Source of the DNA: Escherichia coli
GTDB taxonomy: Bacteria > Pseudomonadota > Gammaproteobacteria > Enterobacterales > Enterobacteriaceae
Assembly: GCF_036507355.1 (NCBI RefSeq)
Contig: NZ_AP027877.1
Reading direction: 5' to 3' (one strand)
Length of the DNA stretch: 64,000 bases
Shown: positions 2,905 to 58,387 of the stretch, piece after piece
Numbering within the stretch: position 1 is the first letter of the stretch
Layout: each line of letters begins with the position of its first letter
Position numbers and translations under genes: made by a program
The notes under the pieces: model-generated
What the model was told of the DNA's origin: nothing
Database searches by the model: none
The model's input: the letters and a program-made list of their open reading frames with translations, nothing else

Positions 2905-3112
<208 letters not shown>

Positions 3113-38596: not shown

Positions 38597-38733
38597 ATCT
38601 AAATATTCTTTCAATTATAACCACCTTGCTGCAATATTATGATTATACTGTATAAAATTTAACTCCTCTTAGATCTTACTTCACTGTTCCTTATGAAACA
38701 ATCATCAAAATGAATCATATTGTAGTTAAGATT

Positions 38734-40120: not shown

Positions 40121-40270
40121 CCGGACGCAACTGAACATCATCAGGACACGCAGCCGCTGGATGCTCAGTCACAGGTAAATTCTGTTGATGCGAAATATCA
40201 GGAACTGCGGGCAGAACTCCATGAAGCCCGGAAAAACATTCCATCAAAAAATCCTGTCGATGCCGATAAA

Positions 40271-41500
40271 TTGCTTGCTGCATCACGTGGTGAATTTGTT
40301 GACGGAATTAGCGACCCGAACGATCCGAAATGGGTAAAGGGGATCCAGACTCGCGATTGTGTGTACCAGAACCAGCCAGAAACGGAAAAAACCAGCCCAG
40401 ATATGAATCAACCTGAGCCAGTAGTGCAACAGGAACCGGAAATAGCCTGCAATGCCTGCGGCCAGACTGGCGGGGATAACTGCCCTGACTGTGGTGCGGT
40501 GATGGGCGACGCAACATACCAGGAAACATTCGATGAAGAGAGTCAGGTTGAAGCTAAGGAAAATGATCCGGAGGAAATGGAAGGCGCTGAACATCCGCAC
40601 AATGAGAATGCTGGCAGCGATCCGCATCGCGATTGCAGTGATGAAACTGGCGAAGTCGCAGATCCCGTAATCGTAGAAGACATAGAGCCAGGTATTTATT
40701 ACGGAATTTCGAATGAGAATTACCACGCGGGTCCCGGTATCAGTAAGTCTCAGCTCGATGACATTGCTGATACTCCGGCACTATATTTGTGGCGTAAAAA
40801 TGCCCCCGTGGACACCACAAAGACAAAAACGCTCGATTTAGGAACTGCTTTCCACTGCCGGGTACTTGAACCGGAAGAATTCAGTAACCGCTTTATCGTA
40901 GCACCTGAATTTAACCGCCGTACAAACGCCGGAAAAGAAGAAGAGAAAGCGTTTCTGATGGAATGCGCAAGCACAGGAAAAACGGTTATCACTGCGGAAG
41001 AAGGCCGGAAAATTGAACTCATGTATCAAAGCGTTATGGCTTTGCCGCTGGGGCAATGGCTTGTTGAAAGCGCCGGACACGCTGAATCATCAATTTACTG
41101 GGAAGATCCTGAAACAGGAATTTTGTGTCGGTGCCGTCCGGACAAAATTATCCCTGAATTTCACTGGATCATGGACGTGAAAACTACGGCGGATATTCAA
41201 CGATTCAAAACCGCTTATTACGACTACCGCTATCACGTTCAGGATGCATTCTACAGTGACGGTTATGAAGCACAGTTTGGAGTGCAGCCAACTTTCGTTT
41301 TTCTGGTTGCCAGCACAACTATTGAATGCGGACGTTATCCGGTTGAAATTTTCATGATGGGCGAAGAAGCAAAACTGGCAGGTCAACAGGAATATCACCG
41401 CAATCTGCGAACCCTGTCTGACTGCCTGAATACCGATGAATGGCCAGCTATTAAGACATTATCACTGCCCCGCTGGGCTAAGGAATATGCAAATGACTAA
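40271..41500 (+). CDS. recE: Exonuclease VIII (RecE) C-terminal portion, N-terminal part of gene missing
   Basis: 409-aa ORF ending …[12 protein letters not shown] just upstream of recT and beginning shortly after the IS3 end; contains the nuclease-domain region. Confidence 0.7.
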
Positions 41501-42302
41501 GCAACCACCAATCGCAAAAGCCGATCTGCAAAAAACTCAGGGAAACCGTGCACCAGCAGCAGTTAAAAATAGCGACGTGATTAGTTTTATTAACCAGCCA
41601 TCAATGAAAGAGCAACTGGCAGCAGCTCTTCCACGCCATATGACGGCTGAACGTATGATCCGTATCGCCACCACAGAAATTCGTAAAGTTCCGGCGTTAG
41701 GAAACTGTGACACTATGAGTTTTGTCAGTGCGATCGTACAGTGTTCACAGCTCGGACTTGAGCCAGGTAGCGCCCTCGGTCATGCATATTTACTGCCTTT
41801 TGGTAATAAAAACGAAAAGAGCGGTAAAAAGAACGTTCAGCTAATCATTGGCTATCGCGGCATGATTGATCTGGCTCGCCGTTCTGGTCAAATCGCCAGC
41901 CTGTCAGCCCGTGTTGTCCGTGAAGGTGACGAGTTTAGCTTCGAATTTGGCCTTGATGAAAAGTTAATACACCGCCCGGGAGAAAACGAAGATGCCCCGG
42001 TTACCCACGTCTATGCTGTCGCAAGACTGAAAGACGGAGGTACTCAGTTTGAAGTTATGACGCGCAAACAGATTGAGCTGGTGCGCAGCCTGAGTAAAGC
42101 TGGTAATAACGGGCCGTGGGTAACTCACTGGGAAGAAATGGCAAAGAAAACGGCTATTCGTCGCCTGTTCAAATATCTGCCCGTATCAATTGAGATCCAG
42201 CGTGCAGTATCAATGGATGAAAAGGAACCACTGACAATCGATCCTGCAGATTCCTCTGTATTAACCGGGGAATACAGTGTAATCGATAATTCAGAGGAAT
42301 AA
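41493..42302 (+). CDS. recT: Single-strand annealing recombinase RecT
   Basis: 269-aa ORF from the internal ATG ([29 protein letters not shown]…), overlapping the recE stop. Confidence 0.85.
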
Positions 42303-42346
42303 TTCAGCCTGGCGGTGTAATGCACCGCCAACTTGAAATATTTTTT

Positions 42347-43330
42347 ATGAGAAAAATTATGAGATATGACAATGTTGGTGATGCTGCCAACTTACTGATT
42401 TAGTGTATGATGGTGTTTTTGAGGTGCTCCAGTGGCTTCTGTTTCTATCAGCTGTCCCTCCTGTTCAGCTACTGACGGGGTGGTGCGTAACGGCAAAAGC
42501 ACCGCCGGACATCAGCGCTATCTCTGCTCTCACTGCCGTAAAACATGGCAACTGCAGTTCACTTACACCGCTTCTCAACCCGGTACGCACCAGAAAATCA
42601 TTGATATGGCCATGAATGGCGTTGGATGCCGGGCAACAGCCCGCATTATGGGCATTGGCCTCAACACGATTTTACGTCACTTAAAAAACTCAGGCCGCAG
42701 TCGGTAACCTCGCGCATACAGCCGGGCAGTGACGTCATCGTCTGCGCGGAAATGGACGAACAGTGGGGCTATGTCGGGGCTAAATCGCGCCAGCGCTGGC
42801 TGTTTTACGCGTATGACAGGCTCCGGAAGACGGTTGTTGCGCACGTATTCGGTGAACGCACGATGGCGACGCTGGGGCGTCTTATGAGCCTGCTGTCACC
42901 CTTTGACGTGGTGATATGGATGACGGATGGCTGGCCGCTGTATGAATCCCGCCTGAAGGGAAAGCTGCACGTAATCAGCAAGCGATATACGCAGCGAATT
43001 GAGCGGCATAACCTGAATCTGAGGCAGCACCTGGCACGGCTGGGACGGAAGTCGCTGTCGTTCTCAAAATCGGTGGAGCTGCATGACAAAGTCATCGGGC
43101 ATTATCTGAACATAAAACACTATCAATAAGTTGGAGTCATTACCGACAATGTTAAACCATGTCCATTTTGTGGTTGTCCATCAGTAACGGTGAAAGCCAT
43201 TTCAGGATATTACCGAGCGAAGTGTAACGGATGCGAATCCCGAACCGGTTATGGTGGAAGTGAAAAAGAAGCACTCGAAAGATGGAATAAACGAACCACT
43301 GGAAATAATAATGGAGGTGTTCATGTATAA
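42347..43330 (+). pseudogene. ralR: lar/ralR (restriction alleviation; type I TA toxin) interrupted by IS1
   Basis: 5' codons (MRKIMRYDNV) at 42347..42376 and the remainder (…KPCPFCGCPSVTVKAISGYYRAKCNGCESRTGYGGSEKEALERWNKRTTGNNNGGVHV*) at 43145..43330, separated by IS1 with a duplicated GACAATGTT. Confidence 0.7.
42377..43144 (+). mobile_element. insAB: IS1 (768 bp), copy 3, simple insertion; insA 42432..42707, insB' 42626..43129
   Basis: Terminal IRs present; perfect 9-bp target-site duplication GACAATGTT at 42368..42376 and 43145..43153. Confidence 0.9.
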
Positions 43331-43532
43331 AATTACCGCCACTATTGAAAAGGAAGGTGGCACTCCTACTAACTGGACAAGATATTCAAAATCTAAACTA
43401 ACGAAATCAGAATGCGAAAAAATGCTCTCAGGTAAAAAAGAAGCAGGCGTTTCCAGAGAGCAGAAAGTAAAACTGATAAATTTTAATTGCGAGAAACTTC
43501 AGTCCTCGAGAATTGCATTGTATTCAAATTAA
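43323..43532 (+). CDS. ydaC: Small prophage protein
   Basis: 69-aa ORF MYKITATIEKEGGTPTNWTRYSKSK… whose start overlaps the lar stop; symbol from position between lar and xisR. Confidence 0.6.
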   Translation: MYKITATIEKEGGTPTNWTRYSKSKLTKSECEKMLSGKKEAGVSREQKVKLINFNCEKLQSSRIALYSN

Positions 43533-43610
43533 AACTTCATAGCTGATTATTAATAATCAACATCGGGCGTCAATTTCAGTCTAACATTGGCGCCTGCCAG
43601 AGGTGATGCG

Positions 43611-43826
43611 ATGGCACAAGTAATCTTTAATGAAGAGTGGATGGTTGAATACGGCCTGATGCTTCGCACTGGTCTGGGGGCCAGACAAATTGAAGCATAC
43701 CGCCAGAACTGTTGGGTGGAGGGCTTCCACTTCAAACGAGTATCTCCTTTAGGTAAGCCAGACAGCAAACGAGGGATTATCTGGTACAACTATCCAAAGA
43801 TAAATCAGTTTATCAAAGACTCATGA
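43611..43826 (+). CDS. xisR: Prophage excisionase
   Basis: 71-aa ORF from the internal ATG ([17 protein letters not shown]…) immediately upstream of the integrase. Confidence 0.7.
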
Positions 43827-43827
43827 T

Positions 43828-45063
43828 ATGTCTAAATTACCAACAGGTGTCGAGATTAGAGGTAGATACATTCGCATCTGGTTCATGTTTCGAGGAAAAC
43901 GATGTCGGGAAACATTAAAAGGCTGGGAGATTACAAACAGTAATATTAAAAAGGCCGGAAATTTAAGAGCGCTGATAGTTCATGAAATAAACTCCGGTGA
44001 ATTTGAGTATTTAAGACGTTTTCCCCAGTCCAGCACTGGGGCAAAAATGGTGACAACGAGAGTCATAAAAACGTTCGGAGAGCTTTGTGATATCTGGACA
44101 AAAATTAAAGAGACAGAGTTAACAACAAACACAATGAAGAAAACGAAATCACAATTAAAAACACTCAGAATAATAATTTGTGAAAGTACCCCGATATCAC
44201 ATATTCGTTATAGCGATATCTTAAACTACCGGAATGAACTGCTGCATGGAGAAACGCTTTACCTGGATAATCCAAGATCCAACAAAAAAGGAAGAACCGT
44301 GCGCACAGTTGATAACTATATCGCCCTGCTCTGTTCGCTGTTGCGTTTTGCGTATCAGTCGGGATTTATATCAACCAAACCATTTGAAGGAGTAAAAAAA
44401 TTACAGCGAAACAGAATAAAGCCTGATCCGTTATCTAAAACAGAATTCAATGCATTAATGGAAAGTGAAAAAGGACAGAGCCAGAACTTGTGGAAATTTG
44501 CCGTTTACTCAGGACTTCGTCACGGGGAACTGGCAGCTCTGGCGTGGGAGGATGTGGATCTCGAAAAGGGAATAGTGAATGTCAGAAGAAACCTGACGAT
44601 ACTTGATATGTTCGGTCCCCCAAAAACAAATGCCGGGATCCGAACAGTAACACTACTGCAGCCTGCTCTTGAAGCACTGAAGGAGCAATACAAACTGACC
44701 GGGCATCATCGCAAAAGCGAAATCACCTTTTATCATCGGGAGTACGGCAGAACCGAAAAGCAAAAACTGCATTTTGTTTTCATGCCCAGGGTGTGTAACG
44801 GAAAACAAAAACCTTATTACTCGGTAAGCAGTTTGGGGGCAAGGTGGAATGCAGCAGTAAAACGTGCTGGTATTCGCCGCCGTAATCCGTACCATACGCG
44901 GCATACTTTTGCCTGCTGGCTGTTGACGGCAGGAGCGAACCCGGCATTTATAGCCAGCCAAATGGGGCATGAAACTGCGCAGATGGTGTATGAAATTTAC
45001 GGTATGTGGATTGATGACATGAACGACGAACAGATAGCCATGTTGAATGCGCGGTTATCGTAG
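43828..45063 (+). CDS. intR: Prophage tyrosine integrase
   Basis: 411-aa ORF with the C-terminal catalytic tyrosine-recombinase region (…HTRHTFACWLLTAGANP…QMGHET…MVYEIY…). Confidence 0.85.
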   Translation: MSKLPTGVEIRGRYIRIWFMFRGKRCRETLKGWEITNSNIKKAGNLRALIVHEINSGEFEYLRRFPQSSTGAKMVTTRVIKTFGELCDIWTKIKETELTTNTMKKTKSQLKTLRIIICESTPISHIRYSDILNYRNELLHGETLYLDNPRSNKKGRTVRTVDNYIALLCSLLRFAYQSGFISTKPFEGVKKLQRNRIKPDPLSKTEFNALMESEKGQSQNLWKFAVYSGLRHGELAALAWEDVDLEKGIVNVRRNLTILDMFGPPKTNAGIRTVTLLQPALEALKEQYKLTGHHRKSEITFYHREYGRTEKQKLHFVFMPRVCNGKQKPYYSVSSLGARWNAAVKRAGIRRRNPYHTRHTFACWLLTAGANPAFIASQMGHETAQMVYEIYGMWIDDMNDEQIAMLNARLS

Positions 45064-45114
45064 TTGCAAAGTTTGCCCCCAATTTGCCCCATTTAGTACC
45101 AGGGAACTGAAATA

Positions 45115-46050
45115 ATGCAAGAAAATCAACAAATTACAAAGAAAGAACAATACAACCTGAACAAATTACAAAAACGCCTGCGTCGTAACGTGGGCGAAGC
45201 CATTGCTGACTTCAATATGATTGAAGAAGGCGATCGCATCATGGTTTGCCTCTCCGGGGGTAAAGACAGCTATACCATGCTGGAGATTCTGCGCAATTTG
45301 CAGCAAAGCGCGCCAATCAATTTTTCGCTGGTGGCTGTTAACCTCGATCAAAAGCAACCGGGCTTCCCGGAACACGTTCTGCCCGAGTATCTTGAAAAGC
45401 TGGGCGTTGAGTACAAGATTGTTGAAGAGAACACTTACGGTATCGTGAAAGAGAAGATTCCAGAGGGCAAAACCACTTGCTCACTGTGTTCTCGGCTACG
45501 TCGCGGTATCCTTTATCGCACCGCAACGGAACTGGGGGCGACGAAGATCGCGCTGGGTCACCATCGTGACGATATCCTGCAAACGCTGTTCTTAAATATG
45601 TTCTACGGCGGCAAGATGAAAGGTATGCCTCCGAAATTGATGAGCGATGATGGCAAACATATCGTGATTCGTCCGCTGGCCTACTGCCGCGAGAAAGATA
45701 TTCAGCGCTTTGCCGATGCAAAAGCGTTCCCGATTATTCCGTGCAACCTGTGCGGTTCACAGCCTAACCTGCAACGTCAGGTGATTGCTGACATGTTGCG
45801 TGACTGGGATAAACGTTATCCGGGGCGTATCGAGACGATGTTCAGCGCGATGCAGAATGTGGTGCCATCGCATCTGTGCGATACCAACCTGTTCGATTTT
45901 AAAGGCATTACCCACGGTTCTGAAGTGGTTAACGGGGGTGATCTGGCGTTTGATCGCGAAGAGATCCCACTACAACCGGCGGGCTGGCAGCCAGAAGAAG
46001 ATGAAAATCAGTTGGATGAGTTACGGCTGAATGTGGTTGAAGTGAAATAA
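45115..46050 (+). CDS. ttcA: tRNA 2-thiocytidine(32) synthetase
   Basis: 311-aa ORF with PP-loop (…[11 protein letters not shown]…) and Cys clusters. Confidence 0.85.
45140..45165. repeat. Prophage att core, int-proximal copy inside the 5' end of ttcA
   Basis: aaagaaagaacaatacaacctgaacaa matches 33982..34007. Confidence 0.75.
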
Positions 46051-46057
46051 CCAGGAT

Positions 46058-46135
46058 AGCGCCCGATGCGCAAGCGTATCGGGCTACTCTTATGGAGGCC
46101 GGATAAGACGCGGCCAGCGTCGCATCCGGCAATCC
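46058..46135. repeat. REP (palindromic unit) elements downstream of ttcA
   Basis: gcccgatgcgcaagcgtatcgggc and gccggataagacgcggccagcgtcgcatccggc palindromes typical of enterobacterial REP. Confidence 0.7.
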
Positions 46136-46178
46136 CGAATAAGATGTTTACTCTTGCACCCGGCAATTCAACATTTCA

Positions 46179-47552
46179 TTATTTTAATAACCGCACCCGG
46201 CACGTTTTTCCTTTAATCTTCCCGCCCTGTAACTGTTTCCATGCTTTATGAGCAACAGCCTGACGGACCGCGACATAGACATGCGCCGGATGCACGGCGA
46301 TTTTGCCAATATCTGCGCCATCAAGCCCGATATCTCCTGTCAGTGCACCTAATACATCACCCGGGCGCATTTTGGCTTTTTTCCCGCCATCGATACACAA
46401 CGTTGCCATTTCTGCTTCCAGCGTCACAATGGAACTATTAGCTGGCGGCGTTTGCCAGTTAAGTTTTATCTGCAACATGTCAGAAATGATATTGGCCCGC
46501 TGTGCTTCTTCCGGAGCACAGAAACTGATCGCCAGACCGCTATTTCCTGCACGAGCTGTACGACCGATGCGATGTACATGAACTTCAGGGTCCCACGCCA
46601 GCTCAAAGTTCACCACCAGCTCAAGCGATTTAATATCCAGACCACGCGCAGCAACATCAGTCGCGACCAGTACACGGGCGCTACCGTTAGCAAAACGTAC
46701 CAGGGTCTGATCGCGATCGCGTTGCTCCAAATCGCCGTGTAATGACAATGCACTTTGCCCTACTTCATTCAGCGCGTCGCAGACAGCCTGGCAATCTTTT
46801 TTGGTATTGCAAAACACCACGCAAGAGGATGGCTGATGCAAGCTTAATAACCGTTGCAACAGAGGAATTTTGCCTTTACTGGATGTCTCATAAAATTGTT
46901 GATCAATGGGTGGCAAAGCATCTGTTGAGTCAATTTCAATCGCCAAAGGATCGCGTTGCACTCGTCCGCTGATTGCAGCGATGGCTTCCGGCCAGGTTGC
47001 TGAAAACAGAAGCGTCTGTCGAGATGCAGGCGCAAAACGGATGACATCATCAATGGCATCGCTAAATCCCATATCCAGCATGCGGTCGGCCTCATCCATC
47101 ACCAAAGTATTCAGCGCATCCAGTGATACCGTGCCTTTTTGCAAGTGATCCAGCAAACGACCCGGCGTTGCCACGATAATATGCGGCGCATGTTGCAACG
47201 AATCACGCTGCATACCGAACGGTTGACCACCGCACAACGTCAAAATTTTGGTATTTGGCAGAAAACGCGCCAGCCGACGCAATTCACCTGCCACCTGATC
47301 CGCCAGTTCACGCGTAGGACACAGCACTAAAGCCTGGGTTTGAAATAGCGACGCATCAATTTGCTGTAACAAGCCGAGGCCAAAAGCCGCCGTTTTGCCG
47401 CTGCCGGTTTTCGCCTGCACGCGAACATCTTTTCCGGCAAGGATCGCCGGAAGCGCGGCGGCCTGCACCGGCGTCATGGTTAAATAACCCAACTCATTAA
47501 GGTTCGTGAGTTGGGCGGGAGGCAAAACATTCAGGGTAGAAAAAGCGGTCAC
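46179..47552 (-). CDS. dbpA: DEAD-box ATP-dependent RNA helicase (23S rRNA specific)
   Basis: 457-aa ORF with Walker A (AKTGSGKT), DEAD box (LVMDEADRML), SAT and HRIGRTAR motifs. Confidence 0.9.
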   Translation of the reverse strand: MTAFSTLNVLPPAQLTNLNELGYLTMTPVQAAALPAILAGKDVRVQAKTGSGKTAAFGLGLLQQIDASLFQTQALVLCPTRELADQVAGELRRLARFLPNTKILTLCGGQPFGMQRDSLQHAPHIIVATPGRLLDHLQKGTVSLDALNTLVMDEADRMLDMGFSDAIDDVIRFAPASRQTLLFSATWPEAIAAISGRVQRDPLAIEIDSTDALPPIDQQFYETSSKGKIPLLQRLLSLHQPSSCVVFCNTKKDCQAVCDALNEVGQSALSLHGDLEQRDRDQTLVRFANGSARVLVATDVAARGLDIKSLELVVNFELAWDPEVHVHRIGRTARAGNSGLAISFCAPEEAQRANIISDMLQIKLNWQTPPANSSIVTLEAEMATLCIDGGKKAKMRPGDVLGALTGDIGLDGADIGKIAVHPAHVYVAVRQAVAHKAWKQLQGGKIKGKTCRVRLLK

Positions 47553-47581
47553 AATCTATTCTCGTGGTCATCGACGCAAAG

Positions 47582-47755
47582 TTAGCAGGCGCGTATCCTC
47601 GCAGATCTACGCTCACGATGCGACAATTTAATCGGTTCTTCATCGGGTGGTGGGTCAGGCATGGGTTGCGGGCGAGGGATCGGATCGGGCACTGGAACAG
47701 GATCGCCAGGAATCGGTTCAGGGACAGGAATTTGCAAATAAATAAGTGTCGTCAT
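47582..47755 (-). CDS. Small proline-rich ORF (57 aa) immediately upstream of dbpA, unidentified
   Basis: Manual translation: MTTLIYLQIPVPEPIPGDPVPVPDPIPRPQPMPDPPPDEEPIKLSHRERRSARIRAC; GGAGGG Shine-Dalgarno about 5 nt upstream of the ATG; ends 30 nt before the dbpA start. Confidence 0.45.
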   Translation of the reverse strand: MTTLIYLQIPVPEPIPGDPVPVPDPIPRPQPMPDPPPDEEPIKLSHRERRSARIRAC

Positions 47756-47812
47756 ATTTCCCTCCGGTCATTGGGTGGACTCTTAAAGGGTAGACGCTGA
47801 TAAATAACAGGC

Positions 47813-47934
47813 AAAAAAAAGCCGACTCATCAAAGTCGGCGTCGTACGAATCAATTGTGCTATGCAGTAATTCAAAAAAGGAAGTAAGACAATATGGAGC
47901 GCAACGCCCATCGCTTGACGTTGCATTCACCTGC
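47813..47934 (-). ncRNA. fnrS: FnrS small RNA
   Basis: Minus strand reads GCAGGTGAATGCAACGTCAAGCGATGGGCGTTGCGCTCCATATTGTCTTACTTCCTTTTTTGAATTACTGCATAGCACAATTGATTCGTACGACGCCGACTTTGATGAGTCGGCTTTTTTTT, matching FnrS as I recall it, with terminal hairpin and T-run. Confidence 0.8.
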
Positions 47935-47969
47935 AAGAGAGATATTGCCCTGAATGGGTAGAGAGTTTA

Positions 47970-47983
47970 TTGACTTCGCTCAA
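47970..47983. promoter_or_regulatory. FNR-type binding site (TTGAC-N4-CTCAA) centred about 42 bp upstream of fnrS
   Basis: ttgacttcgctcaa palindrome resembling the FNR consensus TTGAT-N4-ATCAA, at the class II activation distance. Confidence 0.6.
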
Positions 47984-48029
47984 ACTTTGCGGCGTTTTTG
48001 TATACAGACAGCCGGAAAAATTGCTTTTG

Positions 48030-49034
<1,005 letters not shown>

Positions 49035-49267
49035 TTATTTTGTAGTCTAGCCTTCTGGCCCTGTTACGCAACATCTCATCACCCCATTACCCTGAAATGA
49101 TTAATAAAATTCTGTCTAAATTGAATACAAAAAGCAAAATGCTTTTCCGTATACAAACCGTGTGAAGTGTTAAATAGCGTCTATCATTATCAGAATTATC
49201 TGATCATATGACGAGGCTTTTTTGCGATCGGATAGCAACAAAAATTGATAAAAATAATGGGATCTCA

Positions 49268-50500
49268 ATGATTACGCACAACTTCAATACCCTGGACTTA
49301 CTCACCAGTCCTGTCTGGATCGTTTCGCCCTTTGAGGAACAGTTAATTTATGCCAATAGCGCGGCGCGACTGTTGATGCAAGACCTCACGTTTAGTCAGC
49401 TACGAACCGGTCCCTATTCCGTCTCCTCACAAAAAGAACTGCCGAAATACCTCTCCGATCTGCAAAACCAACACGATATTATCGAAATCCTCACTGTTCA
49501 GCGTAAAGAAGAGGAAACAGCATTAAGCTGTCGGCTTGTTTTGCGAGAGCTGACAGAAACAGAACCGGTGATTATTTTCGAAGGTATCGAAGCGCCGGCA
49601 ACGCTGGGGTTAAAAGCCAGTCGCTCGGCAAATTATCAGCGCAAAAAACAAGGTTTTTATGCGCGCTTTTTTCTGACTAACTCTGCACCAATGTTGTTGA
49701 TTGACCCGTCACGAGATGGACAAATCGTCGATGCTAACCTCGCCGCGCTCAATTTCTATGGTTATAACCATGAAACGATGTGCCAGAAACATACCTGGGA
49801 AATAAATATGCTCGGGCGTCGCGTCATGCCTATCATGCATGAAATTTCGCATTTACCCGGCGGTCATAAACCTTTGAATTTTGTTCATAAACTGGCGGAT
49901 GGATCTACTCGTCATGTGCAGACCTATGCCGGACCGATTGAAATTTATGGCGACAAGCTCATGTTATGTATTGTGCATGATATTACTGAGCAAAAACGGC
50001 TGGAGGAGCAGCTGGAACATGCTGCTCACCATGACGCGATGACCGGATTACTGAATCGGCGACAGTTTTATCACATTACGGAACCAGGCCAAATGCAGCA
50101 TCTCGCCATCGCTCAGGATTACAGCTTGTTGCTCATCGACACCGATCGTTTTAAACACATTAACGATCTCTATGGGCATTCTAAAGGTGATGAGGTGTTA
50201 TGCGCCCTCGCCCGCACCCTCGAAAGTTGCGCTCGCAAAGGCGATTTGGTGTTTCGTTGGGGAGGCGAAGAGTTTGTCTTATTGCTACCAAGAACCCCAC
50301 TGGATACCGCGCTTTCGCTGGCTGAAACTATCCGCGTAAGCGTGGCAAAAGTGAGTATTTCGGGCTTACCACGCTTTACCGTCAGCATTGGTGTGGCGCA
50401 TCACGAAGGAAATGAAAGCATCGATGAACTGTTTAAACGCGTTGATGATGCTTTGTATCGGGCGAAAAATGATGGACGCAACCGCGTGCTGGCGGCATAA
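49268..50500 (+). CDS. dgcM: PAS-GGDEF diguanylate cyclase
   Basis: About 410-aa ORF from the internal ATG (MITHNFNTLDLLTSPVWIV…) with PAS regions and a GGEEF active site (RWGGEEF). Confidence 0.8.
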   Translation: MITHNFNTLDLLTSPVWIVSPFEEQLIYANSAARLLMQDLTFSQLRTGPYSVSSQKELPKYLSDLQNQHDIIEILTVQRKEEETALSCRLVLRELTETEPVIIFEGIEAPATLGLKASRSANYQRKKQGFYARFFLTNSAPMLLIDPSRDGQIVDANLAALNFYGYNHETMCQKHTWEINMLGRRVMPIMHEISHLPGGHKPLNFVHKLADGSTRHVQTYAGPIEIYGDKLMLCIVHDITEQKRLEEQLEHAAHHDAMTGLLNRRQFYHITEPGQMQHLAIAQDYSLLLIDTDRFKHINDLYGHSKGDEVLCALARTLESCARKGDLVFRWGGEEFVLLLPRTPLDTALSLAETIRVSVAKVSISGLPRFTVSIGVAHHEGNESIDELFKRVDDALYRAKNDGRNRVLAA

Positions 50501-50559
50501 GCCGCGGATGCGTCTCGAGATCAACGACTGCGCTTAGCGTGGCGCTCCCAGTTTTCTTG

Positions 50560-51084
50560 CTACGCCTGCGCCGTTTTACGTAGTGCGACGTAACACGCCC
50601 CGCTGCCGCCATGATGCGGTAGCGCGGTGCAATATGCCTGAACATCATCAAATTCGGTCAGCCAGCGCGCCACATAGCTGCGGACAATATTGGCATGCGA
50701 TTTATCATCCCGCCCTTTACCATGAATAATCAGCACGTTACGCAAACCATCCGCCAGGGCTTGTTGAATAAAACTGAACACCATTTTGCGGCACTCTTCC
50801 ACCGGCTGGCGCAAAAGATTCAGGCTCGCCTGTTGCGGATATTTACCACTGCGCAGCTTATCCAGCACCCCATGTTGCAACCCTTCCCGCCGAAACTCCA
50901 GCGGCTGACTTAGTGGGATGATGTCGAGAAATCCGGTGGTGAGGAAATTATCAAGCTGCAGCGTGTCGATACGCTGCGGCGCACGTTGGTTACGCGTTGG
51001 ATGCCAGTGGACATCGGTAGCACGTTTCAGCGGCTGGACATCTTCCATGGCGTCAAGAAACAGCGATTTGTCGTCAAGGTTCAT
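50560..51084 (-). CDS. smrA: Smr-domain DNA endonuclease
   Basis: 174-aa ORF with a C-terminal Smr-like region (…LIIHGKGR…); synteny next to dgcM. Confidence 0.65.
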   Translation of the reverse strand: MNLDDKSLFLDAMEDVQPLKRATDVHWHPTRNQRAPQRIDTLQLDNFLTTGFLDIIPLSQPLEFRREGLQHGVLDKLRSGKYPQQASLNLLRQPVEECRKMVFSFIQQALADGLRNVLIIHGKGRDDKSHANIVRSYVARWLTEFDDVQAYCTALPHHGGSGACYVALRKTAQA

Positions 51085-51278
51085 GTAACCTCCTATGCAC
51101 CTTCACACGTCGTGATTCAGACGGGTTAATTGTTCATACTTACTGCATCGTTCCCTTCACAGATTGAAACAATACTCTACTTCATACCTGTGAGTATCTG
51201 CGCAGGCGGGGCATTTTATACTAGCCTGTTAGCAGTATCGAACAGTTTAGCCCGAGTTTAATTCAGCACAGGCTCCGA

Positions 51279-52792
51279 TCAGGATGATTTATTCATAGCA
51301 GGAACCAACAAAAATGCGATAAATAACAGACCACTGATTAGCAGAAAGGTATCCGAAAATGCCATAGTTTGCGCCTCCCTCAGCATCAATTGACTCAATA
51401 ATTTGGTTGAAGCCAGTATTTCCGATGTCTGGTCACTTCCACTGCGATTAAAAAATAAAGCACTTCTGGAAATGAAGTCATTCACCGTATGGGGAACAGA
51501 AACCATTTTTTCACCCATTCTCGAAAAATGAAAATTAGTTCGATTATTGAGAATAGAGCCACACAGGGCAATACCGATCGCGCCCCCAAGATTACGTGTT
51601 AAATTAAATACACCAGAGGCTAACTTCAGCCGTTCTTTTGGAATTCCCCCCAGCGTTAATGTTACGATGGGGGCCATCGCAAACTGCTGCGAAATCCCTC
51701 TAATTGCCTGTGGAAACAGTAACTCCTGCCATCCCCATTCGTGGGTTATAGGGGTAAAAAGATACATTGAAAACACAAATCCGCCCAGCCCCGCCATCAA
51801 CAGCCATCGCAGATTTATTTTTTTACTTAACCAGAAGTAAAAGGGAACAGAAAATAACTGGAAAATACCTGTTGTGCAAACGGCAAAACCTATCTCTTCG
51901 GCATTTAATCCGCGAATCTGCCCCAAAAACACAGGTATTAAATATACAGTAGAGAATATCCCAACTCCTCCAGAAAAAGAAAAAAACATCCCAGAGTGAA
52001 ATTTTTATCCTTAAAAGCATGAAGATCCATTATCGGATTGGATATTGTAAGTGTACGCGCAGCAAATAAAATAAAACTCACCAATGCCAGAACTGATGTC
52101 AGCAAAATAGTATTATCATCCAGCCATCCCCAGCGCGCTCCTTCTTCAAGGGTATATTCCAGACATCCCAGTGTCATGGCCAACAGGATAATACTCGGAT
52201 AATCAGCAACTTTCAGTAAAGAGAGATCAGGTTTATCAAAATTAACCAGAAAAGGAATACTCAAAACTAAATATATGCCAGGTAATATATTGATATAAAA
52301 TAGCCATCGCCAGTCGAGGTTATCAGTGATCCAGCCCCCCAGAGTTGGCCCTAGCGTCGGTGACAGTGAGGCCAGCGCACTGACTACCGCAGCAGCCAAC
52401 CCCAACTCTTTACCCTGGTAATAAATAAACGCCGTCGTGAAAACTAAAGGGATCATGGATGCGCCAGCAGCTCCCTGTAAAGCACGAAACAAAATCATGA
52501 TCTGAATATTCCATGCAAGTCCACACGCGATACTCATTAAAGTAAATATTCCCGCGGATAGAGTAAAAAGCCAACGAGTGGAAAATACCCGTGACAGCCA
52601 CCCAGAGAGCGGAATAACAATAATCTCAGCAATTAAATAGCTGGTCTGAAGCCAGGCCATTTCGTCTTTACCTGCGGACAGACCACCACCTATTTCATTT
52701 AGGGATGACGATACAATTTGAATATCAAGCTGAGCAATAAATAATCCCATACACATACTGGCGAAAGCAATATGTTTACGCATAGACATCAT
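51279..52792 (-). pseudogene. EmrB/QacA-family MFS efflux transporter, disrupted by a frameshift
   Basis: Two ORFs in different frames (51938..52792 N-terminal half, 51279..51989 C-terminal half) overlapping by about 50 nt; both multi-TM MFS-like. Confidence 0.65.
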
Positions 52793-53820
52793 CTCTCATC
52801 AACACTGACGGTGACGGACAGTCCCGGGCGAAGAAGTTGCTTTAATTCCTTTGCGTCGTCAAATGCAATCCGTACCGGGACACGCTGAACAATTTTGGTG
52901 AAATTGCCAGTGGCATTTTCTATCGGAATCAAGCTGAAACTGGCTCCTGTCGCTGGGGAAAGGCTTTCAATGTGACCGTGAAACACTTCCCCTTTGAGAA
53001 TATCAGCACGGATCTCAGCCTTCATTCCTGGCTTCATTCCCGCTATTTGGTTTTCTTTATAATTTGCATCAACCCACAACTCACTGACTGGTACTAGTGA
53101 AACTAACGATGTGCCGCCTTCCACCCAACTGCCTGTATGGGCGCTGCGGTTTGCGACAATGCCATCAATCGGCGCACGAACAAGGGTATATTCCAGATCC
53201 AGTAGTGCCTGAGTCAAAGCGGCCTGAACTTCTTCGATACTCGCACGTACGTTTTCTTCCTGAGCAGATAAAACTGCCAGCCGTTGCTTCTCCACCAGGA
53301 AATCGTTCGCGGCTTTGCGCTCCTTTGCTGCGACCTGCTGGTAGTCAAACCTGGCGTTATCAATAATTTGTTGCGATATTGCCGCTGATTGTGCGAGTTT
53401 TTCATAACGTTCAGTATCTCGCAGGCGCTTTTGCTCCTCATGTTTTACTGCCTGCCATGTTTCACTGGCACTTTGAATTATCGACTGCTGCATCGCAATA
53501 GTGGCTTGAATGCTTTCGAGATTGGCTTTGCTACTTTTTATTTTTGCCTCAAGCCTGGCGACATTTGCACGATAATCCCGATCATCGAGACGCAGGATAA
53601 TATCGCCTTTTTTTACGCTCTGATTATCGCGCACCTCTATAGCAGAAATATAACCAGAAACTTTACTTGCCACCGTGGTGATATTACCACCAATGTAAGC
53701 ATCATCCGTCGTCTGTATAAATCTTCCTTTGCTTACCCACCAGATAAAAAAGACAACGCCAGTCAAAAGAATACCGATCGCTACCACCCCAATAAGCTGT
53801 TTTTTAGAAATTATCATCAC
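52789..53820 (-). CDS. HlyD/EmrA-family membrane fusion protein
   Basis: 343-aa ORF with N-terminal TM anchor, long coiled-coil region and a C-terminal beta domain; stop overlaps the MFS start. Confidence 0.75.
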   Translation of the reverse strand: MMIISKKQLIGVVAIGILLTGVVFFIWWVSKGRFIQTTDDAYIGGNITTVASKVSGYISAIEVRDNQSVKKGDIILRLDDRDYRANVARLEAKIKSSKANLESIQATIAMQQSIIQSASETWQAVKHEEQKRLRDTERYEKLAQSAAISQQIIDNARFDYQQVAAKERKAANDFLVEKQRLAVLSAQEENVRASIEEVQAALTQALLDLEYTLVRAPIDGIVANRSAHTGSWVEGGTSLVSLVPVSELWVDANYKENQIAGMKPGMKAEIRADILKGEVFHGHIESLSPATGASFSLIPIENATGNFTKIVQRVPVRIAFDDAKELKQLLRPGLSVTVSVDER

Positions 53821-53913
53821 TCTTTACACCGTATATATCCGGAAACTTGCATACGTCATATTTAAAATTTAACATGGCTTATTTGATGATTTCTGACAAA
53901 ATACCTACTGTAA

Positions 53914-54729
53914 ATGACAATTACACTGCAACCCAAAGCATCACCAGGGCATCACATTATCGGACTGGATTCGGAACATCTGAATGGAGGTACAGTTCCC
54001 TGGCATAAACATCTCTATGCCCAGTTGCTTTACCCGGCTGAAGGAGTCGTTCGTGTATGGGCTGGAGAAAGCGTCTGGCTAGTCCATGCCAGCAGCGCGC
54101 TTTGGCTGCCCCCACAAATGCCGCATAAGTTTGTTGCGACAGGCAACGTACTTTTAAAAACCGTACTGGTTTCAGAAGCGGAAAGTGAAACGCTGGGAAC
54201 AGTTTGCTTCATGACGGGTATTTCACCCCTGTTAAGGGAATTACTAATTGCAATTAACCAACTTCCACCGTCGCAAAGTACCACAGATAAACAACAGTTA
54301 CGTTTTTCAGCCCTCGAGACACTGATACTTCAGGAAATAAAAATGGGGGTGAAAATGTCACTTGAACTCCCTTGGCCAAATGATGAGCGGCTACAGCAGC
54401 TTTGTGAGAATTTGCTAAACAACCAAGGGTATCTGCCAACACTGGATAATCTAGCGGATAAAATTAACGTCAGTAGCCGTACACTCATGCGCTTATTTGT
54501 TAAAGAGACGGGATTAACATTTCGCCACTGGGTTCAGCAAATGCACGTTATATCTGCAGTGACGCTTCTTGATGATGGATATTCGTTGACCAAAATTGCC
54601 CATCGTCTGGGCTATGCCTCAGCTGAATCGTTCGGCAATATGTTTAAGCGTCGAACGGGTTACTCGCCCGGTAAATTTACTCGTCGATTAACGATGCATG
54701 ATTATGCAATCACAAGACAAATGATTTAA
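53914..54729 (+). CDS. AraC-family transcriptional regulator (cupin N-domain plus HTH), divergent from the efflux genes
   Basis: 271-aa ORF with a C-terminal AraC-type HTH (…LTKIAHRLGYASAESFGNMFKRRTGYSPGKF…). Confidence 0.75.
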   Translation: MTITLQPKASPGHHIIGLDSEHLNGGTVPWHKHLYAQLLYPAEGVVRVWAGESVWLVHASSALWLPPQMPHKFVATGNVLLKTVLVSEAESETLGTVCFMTGISPLLRELLIAINQLPPSQSTTDKQQLRFSALETLILQEIKMGVKMSLELPWPNDERLQQLCENLLNNQGYLPTLDNLADKINVSSRTLMRLFVKETGLTFRHWVQQMHVISAVTLLDDGYSLTKIAHRLGYASAESFGNMFKRRTGYSPGKFTRRLTMHDYAITRQMI

Positions 54730-54799
54730 CTTATATTTTCGTGAAATCTGTCACTGAAGAAAATTGGCAACGGATGGGTAAAACCGTTATAACACTGTC

Positions 54800-54894
54800 A
54801 CCGGTCACCAGGACCCCAGGCCGGATTTAAGACGAGGATGCACTGCTGTGTGTACTGTAGAGTCTGGCGGATGTCGACAGGCTCTATTTTTTTA
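54800..54894 (+). ncRNA. mcaS: McaS (IsrA)-like small RNA, variant sequence
   Basis: …GGATTTAAGACGAGGATGCACTGCTGTGTGTACTGTAGAGTCTGGCGGATGTCGACAGGCTCTATTTTTTTAT closely matches McaS as I recall it; the 5' about 25 nt differ but still form a stem. Confidence 0.6.
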
Positions 54895-55272
54895 TTCATT
54901 TTTTAGCTCTGTAAATAACCACATTCTCGCCGGGATTGGGGAATGAGTGACGAGATCAGTGGTGTCTGGCGGCTATCACGCCACAGAATCAAATAACAGA
55001 TAGCCTACGGTAAAATTTCGCTGACTGGAATTATCCCACCCTCGATCCATGTGATGGCTTGCCCTCATTTCTTCAGGCAGAAAAATCAAAAAATCGCTTT
55101 ATGCTATCAAACTGCGACAAACCAGACGCGAAACTGGGTACTTACTATTCGTTAGTCTTGCCCTATCCACTTATCTTTTTGGTGGTATGGCTGCTGATGT
55201 TGCTGGCGTGGTATCTTGTCGGTCTGCCGATAGGTCCGGGTATTTACCCACGTTTGTCTTAAGAGAGAACGG

Positions 55273-55788
55273 ATGCTGAGATTACTTGAAGAAAAAATTG
55301 CCACGCCACTGGGTCCACTGTGGGTGATTTGCGATGAGCAATTTCGCCTGCGGGCGGTTGAATGGGAAGAGTACAGCGAACGCATGGTGCAGCTGCTGGA
55401 CATCCATTATCGCAAAGAAGGCTATGAGCGCATTTCTGCCACCAACCCAGGTGGTTTAAGCGACAAGCTTCGTGAATATTTTGCCGGTAATCTTAGCATT
55501 ATTGATACGCTTCCCACTGCCACGGGGGGGACGCCATTTCAGCGCGAAGTCTGGAAAACACTGCGCACTATCCCCTGCGGGCAGGTAATGCATTACGGCC
55601 AACTGGCTGAACAATTGGGCCGCCCTGGCGCGGCGCGTGCCGTTGGTGCGGCAAACGGATCGAATCCCATCAGCATCGTCGTACCTTGCCATCGGGTTAT
55701 TGGCCGAAACGGCACCATGACCGGATATGCAGGCGGAGTTCAGCGAAAAGAGTGGTTATTGCGCCACGAAGGTTATCTTTTGCTGTAA
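55273..55788 (+). CDS. ogt: Methylated-DNA--protein-cysteine methyltransferase
   Basis: 171-aa ORF with the active site PCHRV. Confidence 0.9.
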
Positions 55789-55982
55789 ACATTAAACAAT
55801 TTGTGCCAGCTTGTTCACACTTTTATGTAAAGTTACCCTTAACAACTTAAGGGTTTTCAAATAGATAGACATATATTTACATCTAATATCGGAATTCTCT
55901 GCTGTTAAGGTTTGCTTAGACTTACTTGCTCCCTAAAAAGATGTTAAAATTGACAAATATCAATTACGGCTTGAGCAGACCT

Positions 55983-56735
55983 ATGATCCCGGAAAAGCGA
56001 ATTATACGGCGCATTCAGTCTGGCGGTTGTGCTATCCATTGCCAGGATTGCAGCATCAGCCAGCTTTGCATCCCGTTCACACTCAACGAACATGAGCTTG
56101 ATCAGCTTGATAATATCATTGAGCGGAAGAAGCCTATTCAGAAAGGCCAGACGCTGTTTAAGGCTGGTGATGAACTTAAATCGCTTTATGCCATCCGCTC
56201 CGGTACGATTAAAAGTTATACCATCACTGAGCAAGGCGACGAGCAAATCACTGGTTTTCATTTAGCAGGTGACCTGGTGGGATTTGATGCCATCGGCAGC
56301 GGTCATCACCCGAGCTTCGCGCAGGCGCTGGAAACCTCGATGGTATGTGAAATCCCGTTCGAAACGCTGGACGATTTGTCCGGTAAAATGCCGAATCTGC
56401 GTCAGCAGATGATGCGTCTGATGAGCGGTGAAATCAAAGGCGATCAGGACATGATCCTGCTGTTGTCGAAGAAAAATGCCGAGGAACGTCTGGCTGCATT
56501 CATCTACAACCTGTCCCGTCGTTTTGCCCAACGCGGCTTCTCCCCTCGTGAATTCCGCCTGACGATGACTCGTGGCGATATCGGTAACTATCTGGGCCTG
56601 ACGGTAGAAACCATCAGCCGTCTGCTGGGTCGCTTCCAGAAAAGCGGCATGCTGGCAGTCAAAGGTAAATACATCACCATCGAAAATAACGATGCGCTGG
56701 CCCAGCTTGCTGGTCATACGCGTAACGTTGCCTGA
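55983..56735 (+). CDS. fnr: Anaerobic global regulator FNR (CRP/FNR family)
   Basis: 250-aa ORF from the internal ATG with the N-terminal Cys cluster (…[16 protein letters not shown]…) and C-terminal HTH. Confidence 0.9.
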
Positions 56736-56886
56736 TTTTTCCGCATAACTCACTATCCTTCTGTCATATCATTAAATTTTTCTGATTTATTGATCTGGCA
56801 GAAGGTTCATCACTGTTTCATTCACCAGATATGGGTTAATCTTTTAATTACAAACTGCGTTGACAGTTGTTGTAAGGAGACCCTGT

Positions 56887-57837
56887 ATGGCTATGTATCA
56901 GAACATGCTCGTTGTTATCGATCCTAACCAGGACGACCAACCAGCATTGCGGCGAGCTGTTTATTTACATCAACGGATTGGTGGCAAAATTAAAGCCTTT
57001 TTGCCGATCTATGACTTCTCATACGAAATGACCACCCTGCTCTCCCCGGACGAACGTACCGCTATGCGTCAGGGCGTCATCAGCCAGCGTACAGCCTGGA
57101 TCCACGAGCAGGCAAAATATTATCTCAATGCTGGCGTTCCCATTGAAATTAAAGTGGTCTGGCATAACCGTCCTTTCGAAGCCATCATTCAGGAAGTGAT
57201 CAGCGGCGGGCACGATTTGGTGCTAAAAATGGCGCACCAACATGACCGTCTGGAAGCGGTGATTTTTACGCCAACGGACTGGCATCTGTTACGCAAATGC
57301 CCAAGCCCGGTGTGGATGGTGAAAGACCAGCCGTGGCCGGAAGGAGGTAAGGCGCTGGTGGCGGTGAATCTCGCCAGTGAAGAGCCGTATCATAATGCGC
57401 TCAATGAAAAACTGGTCAAAGAGACGATCGAACTGGCAGAACAAGTCAACCATACCGAAGTTCATCTGGTTGGCGCTTACCCAGTAACGCCAATTAATAT
57501 CGCGATTGAACTGCCGGAATTTGATCCGAGCGTTTATAACGATGCCATTCGTGGGCAACATTTGCTGGCAATGAAAGCTCTGCGGCAGAAATTCGGCATT
57601 AATGAAAACATGACGCACGTAGAAAAAGGTCTGCCAGAAGAGGTGATTCCTGATTTGGCGGAGCACTTACAGGCGGGGATTGTGGTTCTGGGTACGGTAG
57701 GACGCACCGGTATTTCAGCAGCATTCCTCGGCAACACGGCGGAACAGGTGATTGATCATCTTCGCTGCGATCTGTTGGTCATTAAACCTGACCAGTATCA
57801 GACACCCGTTGAACTGGATGACGAAGAAGACGATTAA
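56887..57837 (+). CDS. uspE: Tandem-domain universal stress protein E
   Basis: About 316-aa ORF from the internal ATG ([15 protein letters not shown]…), two Usp domains. Confidence 0.85.
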
Positions 57838-57886
57838 CGACTCTTCAATAACTGACAAGGCCCGAGTTATCGGGCCTATTTTTTAC

Positions 57887-58144
57887 TTACTGCTCTTCGC
57901 CGCCAAGGAAATAAATTCCCAACGGGATTGCCAGCAACACAGTAAAGACCAGGCTATAAACAAAAATCATCGATGACTGAATCACATACATTGATGTCGT
58001 CCACTCAGACAGCGGAATATTGTACTGTTCTATAACGCCGCCGATAGTCGCGCGAGTCACAACCGACGCCGCAATAATGAAAACCGCCAACAAACCAAAG
58101 AGAAATTTCTTCCCTTTCGCTGACTTCAGTTTCGCCATAATCAT
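57887..58144 (-). CDS. ynaJ: Small inner-membrane protein (DUF2534)
   Basis: 85-aa two-TM ORF; synteny between uspE and ynaI. Confidence 0.7.
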   Translation of the reverse strand: MIMAKLKSAKGKKFLFGLLAVFIIAASVVTRATIGGVIEQYNIPLSEWTTSMYVIQSSMIFVYSLVFTVLLAIPLGIYFLGGEEQ

Positions 58145-58387
58145 GATGTAATCCTTGTGCAGACAAATTTCTTGTTACCTAAACGTAACAATACCATGAC
58201 ATTTCACCGTTGTCTGCTCTGAAAACCTCACCTCTTAGCTGGATTTACAATCAACGCATTGATTAGTTAGCTAATGTTGCTACTTCCTTCCCTGACTATT
58301 GATGATCTGAATGAATTGTCGCGGTAAAATAGCCCCGCCAGGGGTTTCCGGCATGACGACAATTATCTGGAGGAGCCTGATAAAACA

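Follow-up and report, generated by a model that had tools for sequence, protein, structure and literature searches.

What lies between smrA and ogt in this Escherichia coli chromosome, how did the interval come to differ from that of K-12, and can its genes still make a pump? The window is the whole stretch of DNA analysed, 64,000 nucleotides long, and the flanks of the interval are 99.1–99.3% identical to K-12. A preliminary description had stated that K-12 has abgR-abgA-abgB-abgT between smrA and ogt and had noted that these genes are missing here. The K-12 map agrees, giving the order ogt-abgT-abgB-abgA-abgR-mcaS-smrA; in the window abgA and abgB are indeed absent, and abgR and abgT are reduced to 3' stubs. 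The locus is probably best explained by insertion of a three-gene cassette, a separate deletion in abg, and a frameshift from a run of eight T (T8) to a run of seven (T7) in the transporter gene of a pump with an EmrAB-like function. A full-text literature search found no publications on the window's smrA-ogt variant, on the cassette or on McaS alleles.

Layout and occurrence of the locus

The features of the locus are collected in Table 1. On the smrA side, identity to K-12 stops at 51094, 10 nt 5' of the smrA ATG. From 51095 to 54693 the window has no K-12 counterpart, and 54694–55114 is only 81% identical to K-12. For the left edge of the inserted block (51095–51293), neither K-12 nor the orthologous cassettes have a homologue, and no terminator-like site was found on its minus strand. 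The cassette consists of the divergent AraC-type regulator gene and EmrAB-like HlyD/MFS pair that had been described, and the family profiles match. The MFS gene does occupy two overlapping frames. It forms a translationally coupled operon with the HlyD gene, delimited at 52789–53817 within the ORF of Table 1, and its start codon overlaps the HlyD stop codon (ATGA).

Table 1. Coordinates of features at the smrA-ogt locus of the window
Feature	Coordinates	Strand	Remarks
smrA (left flank)	50521..51084	-	99.1% identical to K-12 as far as 51094
Inserted block, left edge	51095..51293	-	final codons of MFS gene and 194-nt spacer to smrA
DHA2-family (EmrB-like) MFS transporter gene	51279..52792	-	split, two overlapping ORFs
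MFS C-terminal ORF	51279-51989	-	236 aa
Frameshift site	51980..51986	-	run of 7 T here, 8 T in intact alleles
MFS N-terminal ORF	51938-52792	-	284 aa
HlyD-family, EmrA-like membrane-fusion adaptor gene	52789-53820	-	343 aa
Divergent intergenic control region, HlyD-MFS operon / AraC gene	53818..53913		
AraC-family regulator gene	53914-54729	+	271 aa; cupin/AraC_binding and HTH_18
Resident DNA homologous to K-12 smrA-mcaS intergenic region	54694..54799	+	includes mcaS promoter region
mcaS sRNA gene	54800..54895	+	RF00115 match
abgR 3' stub (pseudogene)	about 54903..55098	-	
Junction of 5,040-bp deletion	55114		
abgT 3' stub	about 55119..55262	+	99% identical to K-12
ogt	55273-55788		after abgT stub

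The locus shares with the abgR-mcaS-smrA region of K-12 the same flanking genes, the placement of McaS directly beside the abgR 3' end, and a conserved mcaS promoter region. It differs in that K-12 lacks the cassette, keeps abgRABT intact, and fills the cassette's position upstream of smrA with an unrelated 111 bp. The McaS-like sRNA had been placed between the regulator and ogt, away from smrA. This holds, and the position next to the abgR stub is the customary one for McaS; it is the cassette that separates McaS from smrA. The window's McaS scores 112.8 bits against RF00115 (gathering score 42) over model positions 1–96 of 96. The allele differs from that of K-12 at 11 of 96 positions, nine of them in the 5' stem-loop, and two changed pairs in the 5' stem retain standard pairing. 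By inspection, the mcaS promoter region contains a CRP-like site, GTGAAATCTGTCAC, that is conserved in both haplotypes. Every carrier of the cassette has a McaS allele other than that of K-12 and a substituted sequence upstream of smrA, differences that could matter when K-12 regulation is extrapolated to pathogenic strains.

Haplotypes were counted in 5,426 complete E. coli genomes. The cassette is present at a coverage of at least 80% in 1,316 of them and the MFS gene in 1,318–1,454; the window's full 8-kb arrangement occurs in 1,000. The deletion junction is found in 1,170 genomes, the 5' part of abgR in 4,197, and in 314, for example the O7:H15 strain ST70, the cassette coexists with an intact abgRABT operon. 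Cassette carriers include ST131, UTI89, E2348/69 and ST38, which we take to be phylogroup B2 and D strains, and the cassette is also found in Shigella flexneri and in the divergent Escherichia genome E69. The locus had been called lineage-specific, a label that does not suit a cassette carried by roughly one in four complete E. coli genomes, and by others besides. Three structural versions of the smrA-ogt region are common, of which the window represents one, and the variation is an ordinary accessory-gene polymorphism.

Origin of the cassette and of the abg deletion

The same three genes occur in differing neighbourhoods in Citrobacter, Kluyvera and Salmonella. In the cassettes of Citrobacter, Kluyvera, Hafnia and Salmonella enterica (e.g. 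P0014, P0045) they have identical order and orientation, with amino-acid identities of about 82% for the MFS protein and 79% for the regulator, and the DNA is 71.5% identical across 51294–54691. In contrast to the E. coli locus, the neighbours in Salmonella are resolvase, DinI and copper-resistance genes, and the regulator of the orthologous cassettes has 262 aa, without an 11-aa tail.

This tail marks the right boundary. Homology to the foreign cassettes covers 51294–54691 and homology to K-12 starts at 54694. The last 11 codons of the regulator (54694–54729 with the stop), which encode the extension MHDYAITRQMI missing from the 262-aa orthologues, thus consist of resident K-12-homologous DNA. 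The cassette ends on the right where the regulator's stop codon originally stood, and in E. coli translation therefore runs on for 11 codons of resident DNA. The idea that part of the AraC gene survives in K-12, which would hence once have lost the cassette, was rejected, as the shared 36 nt encode the tail that orthologous regulators lack. It appears that a three-gene accessory cassette was inserted between smrA and mcaS, ending at the regulator's stop codon.

The cassette could instead be ancestral to E. coli and have been deleted from K-12-type chromosomes. The range of the carriers named above fits such a history, as does the presence of the cassette at the same site in a divergent Escherichia genome. 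We regard it as possible though unlikely, given the exact meeting of foreign and K-12 homology (54691/54694), the resident origin of the regulator's tail, and the unrelated 111 bp, with no cassette remnant, that K-12 has in this place. The two histories could both hold, each at its own depth, for instance if the insertion is ancient and alleles were replaced later. A single scan of genome contigs for outgroup synteny returned only Kluyvera intermedia, several Paraburkholderia and E69, and gave no such locus for E. albertii or E. fergusonii.

Relative to K-12, 5,040 bp are missing (K-12 1400396–1405435), comprising the 5' part of abgR, abgA, abgB and most of abgT. In place of a complete abgRABT operon, the window retains an abgR stub of about 200 nt and a 149-nt abgT 3' remnant (144 nt annotated). 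The p-aminobenzoyl-glutamate salvage operon is thus lacking wherever the deletion version is carried. The preliminary description had treated insertion and loss as one locus replacement. The 314 genomes that pair the cassette with an intact abg operon speak against this, and make the two separable events.

A single step in which a foreign block, comprising the cassette plus an mcaS and an abgR 3' end of foreign origin, was swapped for mcaS-abgRABT would nevertheless account for several observations. The DNA that is absent from K-12 or divergent from it (51095–55113) is bounded exactly by two structural breakpoints, the abgR stub is foreign in type, and E69 has the same block with the same junction. 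In the 314 genomes, however, the identical cassette and mcaS allele are joined to an abg operon that is intact and K-12-like. Moreover, what adjoins the cassette on its right is homologous to the intergenic DNA of K-12, from which it follows that the cassette entered the resident smrA-mcaS spacer independently of abg. We consider a single swap quite improbable. Rather, a separate 5-kb deletion would have taken out abgR' through 'abgT in the window's version of the locus.

The abgR stub adds a further element to this proposed history of insertion and separate deletion. Its identity to the 3' end of E. coli abgR is about 76%, compared with 92% to the corresponding stub of E69, so that the cassette-plus-deletion block contains DNA of a foreign type. 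The haplotype that combines the cassette with abg matches the window exactly as far as the end of the mcaS terminator and resembles K-12 beyond it; its abgR is 75.7% identical to the window's stub. E69 is colinear with the window, with flanks 78–94% identical and a cassette mostly 94–99% identical. Because the divergent type of stub is common to a distant Escherichia lineage, the block has probably been moved by recombination.

The interrupted transporter gene

The T run at the frameshift site was typed with 75/76-nt queries and a length sample of carriers; an 87/88-nt T7/T8 query seeded only 422 genomes, as low-complexity masking and SNPs close to the run interfered. Of the carriers sampled, about 75% have a gene of T8 length. 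The T8 reading frame encodes an uninterrupted protein of 504 aa that is colinear with the 505-aa orthologues from end to end (82% identity). Orthologous cassettes have T6-C-T at the site in contrast to the T8 of E. coli, and the T8 run is thus specific to Escherichia. In the window's strain the gene would have lost one T from such a run, cutting the protein after residue 271, within the ninth hydrophobic segment of a crude hydropathy scan. A transporter truncated at about this point should be inactive, and we infer that the window's pump has lost its function. The later decay that had been proposed for the locus therefore fits this strain, in which the MFS gene is disrupted, and does not extend to most carriers, which keep a full-length reading frame.

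As a single-base change in a homopolymer, the T7 run might be a sequencing or assembly error in an organism whose real gene is intact. T8 is the state of the closest complete genomes, among them A30 and 33F4, and the sister assemblies 2013C-4830 (T7) and 90-3040 (T8) differ solely in the T run. On the other hand, T7 recurs in unrelated genomes (E2348/69, swine ETEC, A34 and E69). The window's MFS allele also has a nearby SNP that is present in E69 and absent from all E. coli loci compared, and its exact 284-aa product, with this SNP, occurs in two independent short-read assemblies, ERZ27235504 and SRR7532973. The window's T7 is for this reason probably real, and we give little credence to an error.

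A real T7 allele could still be live if a -1 ribosomal slip or slippage of RNA polymerase made the pump leaky or switchable. U_UUU_UUU is a perfect zero-frame -1 slippery heptamer; in UGU UUU UUU CUU a -1 slip would give UCU UUU UCU GGA, which is the T8 reading, and restore the exact T8 protein. T7 and T8 also interconvert repeatedly between lineages. Against this, the sequence 3' of the slip site has no stimulatory RNA structure (z = -0.03), no Shine-Dalgarno-like motif was seen upstream of the run, and a stretch of seven or eight T is short for slippage to be efficient in E. coli. Unrelated deletions account for the loss of the gene in other carriers, a pattern that relaxed selection fits better than a regulated switch. 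A live T7 allele is accordingly very unlikely. We are just as doubtful of a broader proposal, in which the T8 run is a reversible switch or -1 frameshift site, with T7 strains making some full-length pump or reverting, and the cassette-plus-deletion block, with its distinct McaS allele and new smrA upstream region, entered by introgression from a cryptic Escherichia clade and rewires the regulation of biofilms and efflux in about one E. coli in five. The preferred reading is that of a simple loss of one T.

RefSeq flags even T8 alleles as 'frameshifted'. This flag was not accepted at face value, as the translated T8 alleles are intact and the ends of the RefSeq pseudogene coincide with the point at which a truncated S. 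flexneri protein (C-terminus ...AFSVPFC) stops. Judged from the pseudogene coordinates, the flag looks like an artefact of this truncated reference protein, presumably WP_162471458.1 or another shortened S. flexneri entry of the kind. RefSeq thus seems to call a pump with an intact frame a pseudogene, and surveys of pan-genomes or resistomes may drop it.

Protein families and likeness to EmrAB-TolC

With the frame repaired to T8, the MFS protein scores 397.5 bits against TIGR00711 (efflux_EmrB; cut-off 230.2), aligned over residues 9–496 of 504, and 133 bits against Pfam MFS_1. A DHA2 transporter of this family should have 14 helices in one uninterrupted polypeptide; the window's gene, split as it is, does not encode one. 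In a crude hydropathy scan about 12 segments stand out clearly, and the full set of 14 helices is not resolved. Against the exception-level EmrB model NF000391 the protein scores 212.3 bits, below the threshold of 925, and on these scores it is to be regarded as an EmrB paralogue and not as EmrB. The best family for the HlyD protein is EmrA/EmrK (TIGR00998), with which it aligns end to end (7–340 against 2–334 of 334) at 266.8 bits, below the cut-off of 390.8. It passes the generic RND_mfp model TIGR01730 (132.5 against 94.9) and Pfam HlyD domains, and has an N-terminal membrane anchor. The regulator has the C-terminal double helix-turn-helix and N-terminal cupin ligand-binding domain of the AraC/XylS family, with Pfam scores (cut-offs) of 78 bits (33.6) for HTH_18, 34.7 (21.1) for AraC_binding and 29.7 (27.2) for Cupin_2; no NCBIfam equivalog matched it above cut-off. 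The best PDB matches, unambiguous in sequence, are EmrB (E = 6.6e-54) and EmrA (E = 5.6e-43) of the EmrAB-TolC complex.

By analogy with that complex, the intact cassette most likely encodes an EmrAB-like, TolC-dependent exporter. A 14-helix inner-membrane proton antiporter and an anchored periplasmic adaptor would dock on TolC, a partner suggested by the EmrAB-TolC structures, since the cassette itself has no outer-membrane factor gene. Family resemblance suggests that the pump would export a small hydrophobic compound in the manner of EmrAB, and that the cupin-domain AraC regulator would sense an inducer. About a quarter of E. coli genomes, including the major extraintestinal lineages ST131 and UTI89, would then have an EmrAB-like pump with its own sensor, so far uncharacterised. 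Current understanding of efflux and sRNA biology is unaltered by the locus, and its practical consequences are modest.

The known system closest in design is EmrAB-TolC of E. coli K-12 (PDB 8zal, 8zar). Both combine a DHA2 MFS transporter with an anchored EmrA-type adaptor, and in both the genes overlap in an operon without an outer-membrane gene. The cassette differs in its shorter adaptor, 343 aa compared with 390 aa, which falls below the EmrA/EmrK cut-off. It also has a divergent AraC/cupin regulator, whereas the regulator of EmrAB is the MarR-type EmrR. Finally, the cassette is accessory (about 24–27% of genomes), whereas EmrAB is core.

A polymorphic interval between smrA and ogt

The smrA-ogt locus is the site of a widespread structural polymorphism, made up of an accessory efflux cassette and an independent deletion of abg, and it reflects ordinary biology. 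The anatomy given in the preliminary description, that is, a divergent AraC-family regulator, an EmrA-like HlyD adaptor, a split MFS gene and McaS, is borne out by the ORF listing, family searches and the Rfam match. Its map of K-12, with abg between smrA and ogt, was also right: the annotated order in MG1655 is ogt-abgT-abgB-abgA-abgR-mcaS-smrA, without the cassette. The observation itself was accurate, and the interpretation, a lineage-specific replacement followed by decay, is partly right.

The annotation of the closest complete genome matches the window layout, and its two small pseudogene stubs ahead of ogt are 3' fragments of a LysR gene (abgR) and of abgT. By alignment, the abgR stub joins the abgT stub at ~55114, which represents a 5,040-bp deletion of K-12 1400396-1405435.

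Features of the window, its alignment with K-12 and MFS features flagged by RefSeq (window positions, except for compared genome loci L001, L003 and L022)
Feature	Coordinates	Strand	Basis or identity
smrA	up to 51084	minus	ORF listing
MFS gene, two overlapping ORFs	51279-51989 and 51938-52792	minus	ORF listing, family searches
HlyD-family adaptor gene	52789-53817/53820	minus	ORF listing, family searches
AraC-family gene, divergently transcribed	53914-54729	plus	ORF listing, family searches
McaS	54800-54895		Rfam, 112.8 bits (gathering score 42)
K-12 alignment	45063-51094		99.1%
K-12 alignment	51095-54693		no counterpart; unrelated 111 bp at K-12 site
K-12 alignment	54694-55114		81% only
K-12 alignment	55114-58270		99.3%
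Rac-like remnant, whole	37139-45063
Rac-like remnant, TrkH/TrkG-like gene	37139-38614
Rac-like remnant, IS3-family transposase	38893-39759
Rac-like remnant, RecE C-terminal half	40271-41500
Rac-like remnant, RecT	41436-42302
Rac-like remnant, integrase	43828-45063
MFS gene (both ORFs together), window	51279-52792
RefSeq-flagged MFS, L001	5339-6794
RefSeq-flagged MFS, L003	2839-4255
RefSeq-flagged MFS, L022	3424-4879

The arrangement had been proposed to be lineage-specific, which it is not, since the cassette occurs at ≥80% coverage in 1,316 of 5,426 complete E. coli genomes. The MFS gene is present in 1,318-1,454 of these genomes, the abgR'/'abgT deletion junction in 1,170, the entire 8-kb window arrangement in 1,000, and the abgR 5' part missing from the window in 4,197. 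The genome sets carrying the MFS gene and the abgR 5' part overlap; therefore, a chimeric query was searched, in which the window AraC gene is fused to K-12 mcaS-abgR-abgA. It matched in a single piece in 314 genomes, one of which, O7:H15 strain ST70, is annotated smrA-MFS-HlyD-AraC-abgR-abgA-abgB-abgT-ogt. Because these 314 genomes hold cassette and abg together, there are three structural haplotypes: abg without the cassette (K-12 type, ~3,880 genomes), cassette with abg (314), and cassette with abg deleted, as in the window (~1,000-1,170). The same 314 genomes contradict a single-step replacement of abg by the cassette block. Cassette insertion and abg loss are separable events.

Upstream of the smrA start codon, identity with K-12 extends over 10 nt only, and thus the smrA upstream region differs in all cassette carriers. 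In these, a co-directional MFS gene lies 194 nt upstream of smrA (window 51085-51278), and no terminator-like site was detected between the two genes. Transcription of smrA may thus be tied to that of the efflux operon in cassette carriers.

Origin and movement of the cassette

Orthologues of the repaired MFS protein, 505 aa long and ~82% identical to it, occur in Citrobacter, Kluyvera, Hafnia, Pluralibacter and Salmonella. Among genomes with those orthologues, the AraC/HlyD/MFS trio occupies several unrelated neighbourhoods; in Salmonella it adjoins a resolvase fragment, DinI and copper-resistance genes. Over 51294-54691 the window is homologous at the DNA level to the orthologous cassettes (71.5% identity), and K-12 homology starts again at 54694. 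The regulator is 271 aa long in E. coli versus 262 aa in the orthologues, and the codons of its additional C-terminal tail, MHDYAITRQMI, coincide exactly with DNA common to the K-12 smrA-mcaS spacer. The simplest reading is that the cassette was inserted with its right end at the regulator stop codon, so that the ORF was extended into resident DNA.

Over the cassette and mcaS, as far as the mcaS terminator, the haplotype with both cassette and abg is identical to the window; past that point it is K-12-like. Its abgR 3' end is 75.7% identical to the window stub. The corresponding stub of E69 (CP089930.1), a genome labelled E. coli that serves as a GTDB species representative and was picked up by the genome scan, is 92% identical. 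The E69 locus runs colinear with that of the window and has the same deletion; identity to the window is only 78-94% over flanking core genes, against mostly 94-99% over the cassette. Because the cassette is closer than the flanks and the abgR stub is of the E69 type, the cassette/deletion block appears to have moved among Escherichia lineages by recombination. The genome scan recovered neither an E. albertii nor an E. fergusonii locus by which to order the events or polarise the empty site.

Compared with K-12, the McaS allele of the window has changes at 11 of 96 positions. Nine fall within the 5' stem-loop (nt 6-20), where the stem keeps standard pairing and GGA is still in the loop. It is 99-100% identical in the compared cassette-bearing E. 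coli loci and 96% in E69.

Elsewhere, dgcM (49445-50344) is unusually divergent from E69 (78-85% identity; adjoining core genes ~90%). A Rac-like prophage remnant adjoins ttcA and has, relative to E69, an IS1-sized insertion (42377-43144) with a 9-bp overlap between the alignments on either side. The prophage segment 40423-45244 is 99.8-100% identical to E69, and this near-identity in genomes otherwise ~8-20% divergent implies that the prophage was recently shared between lineages.

Decay and annotation of the MFS gene

A T run at 51980-51986 (minus strand) has seven T in the window (T7) and eight (T8) in A30, ws5-3, 90-3040 and strain ST70; a UPEC genome reads TTTCTTTT at this site. T8 gives an uninterrupted 504-aa ORF, alignable over its whole length to the 505-aa orthologues. 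The frameshift noted earlier is borne out. The orthologues read TGT TTT TTC TCT here, and the T8 run arose in Escherichia by a synonymous C-to-T change. The frameshift truncates the transporter past residue 271, about the ninth hydrophobic segment.

The exact T7 75-mer occurs in 2013C-4830, 2012C-4227 and A34, and T7 is further seen in swine ETEC, E2348/69 and E69. The window has A at 51966, where six compared E. coli loci have G (synonymous in the T8 frame); E69 combines this A with T7. No exact match to an 87-nt stretch around 51966 was found among complete genomes. The exact 284-aa N-terminal product of the window, with the effect of the A-for-G change, recurs in two independent short-read assemblies; the lesion is therefore very probably real and a sequencing error unlikely. 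The T7 run is also a perfect -1 slippery heptamer (U_UUU_UUU), at which slippage would restore the T8 protein and make the pump leaky or switchable. The probability of this is low, as no downstream structure was found past the run (z = -0.03) and the gene is lost through unrelated deletions in other lineages.

In a length sample of 60 of the 1,454 gene-carrying genomes, 45 had the T8 length (1,515 nt), 4 were one base shorter, 1 was one base longer, 4 had a deletion spanning the HlyD-MFS junction, and 6 kept 28% of the gene (rows H310-H315, including LF82, Nissle and Seattle 1946). The frameshift is one of several recurring decay routes; the proposed later decay holds for the window strain, but as a minority state. 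Other, independent forms of decay include a deletion that fuses the 3' half of the MFS gene to a shortened AraC gene in 2013C-4830 and 90-3040 (loci L005/L006, 2335-3183), the junction deletion of UPEC-455U (locus L004, 3249-5525), and the large deletion leaving the 28% remnant in LF82, a Nissle derivative and Seattle 1946.

RefSeq sets its 'frameshifted' flag even in genomes with T8 and an intact 504-aa ORF. Its pseudogene features span 1,456 nt and terminate 59 nt short of the true stop, in a different frame. NCBI holds 504-aa E. coli versions, and also shorter S. flexneri proteins (484 and 488 aa) with the C-terminus ...AFSVPFC, the result of the loss of 1 nt close to the 3' end of the gene. 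Because the pseudogene ends coincide exactly with the S. flexneri stop, the flag is most simply explained as an artefact of alignment to a truncated S. flexneri reference, and may touch more than 1,000 genomes. The locus analysis has useful by-products in this likely mis-annotation and in the linked differences in McaS and in the region upstream of smrA.

Proposed function and related systems

The MFS protein scores above the cut-off of the DHA2/EmrB-subfamily model (397.5 vs 230.2); identity as EmrB was rejected (212 vs 925). The best family of the adaptor is EmrA/EmrK, under the curated cut-off (266.8 vs 390.8). The adaptor carries an N-terminal membrane anchor, and the stop codon of its gene overlaps the start of the MFS gene (ATGA). 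In the regulator, a cupin/AraC_binding domain is combined with HTH_18. By family resemblance, the cassette would encode a proton-driven, TolC-dependent EmrAB-like exporter, which a ligand-sensing AraC protein would switch on from the 96-bp divergent region; the pump would be inactive in the window strain.

Among solved structures, the MFS protein and the adaptor are nearest to EmrB and EmrA, respectively, from the EmrAB-TolC complex. The orthologous cassettes of Citrobacter, Kluyvera, Salmonella and others have the same gene trio, but their 262-aa regulators lack the 11-aa tail found in E. coli.
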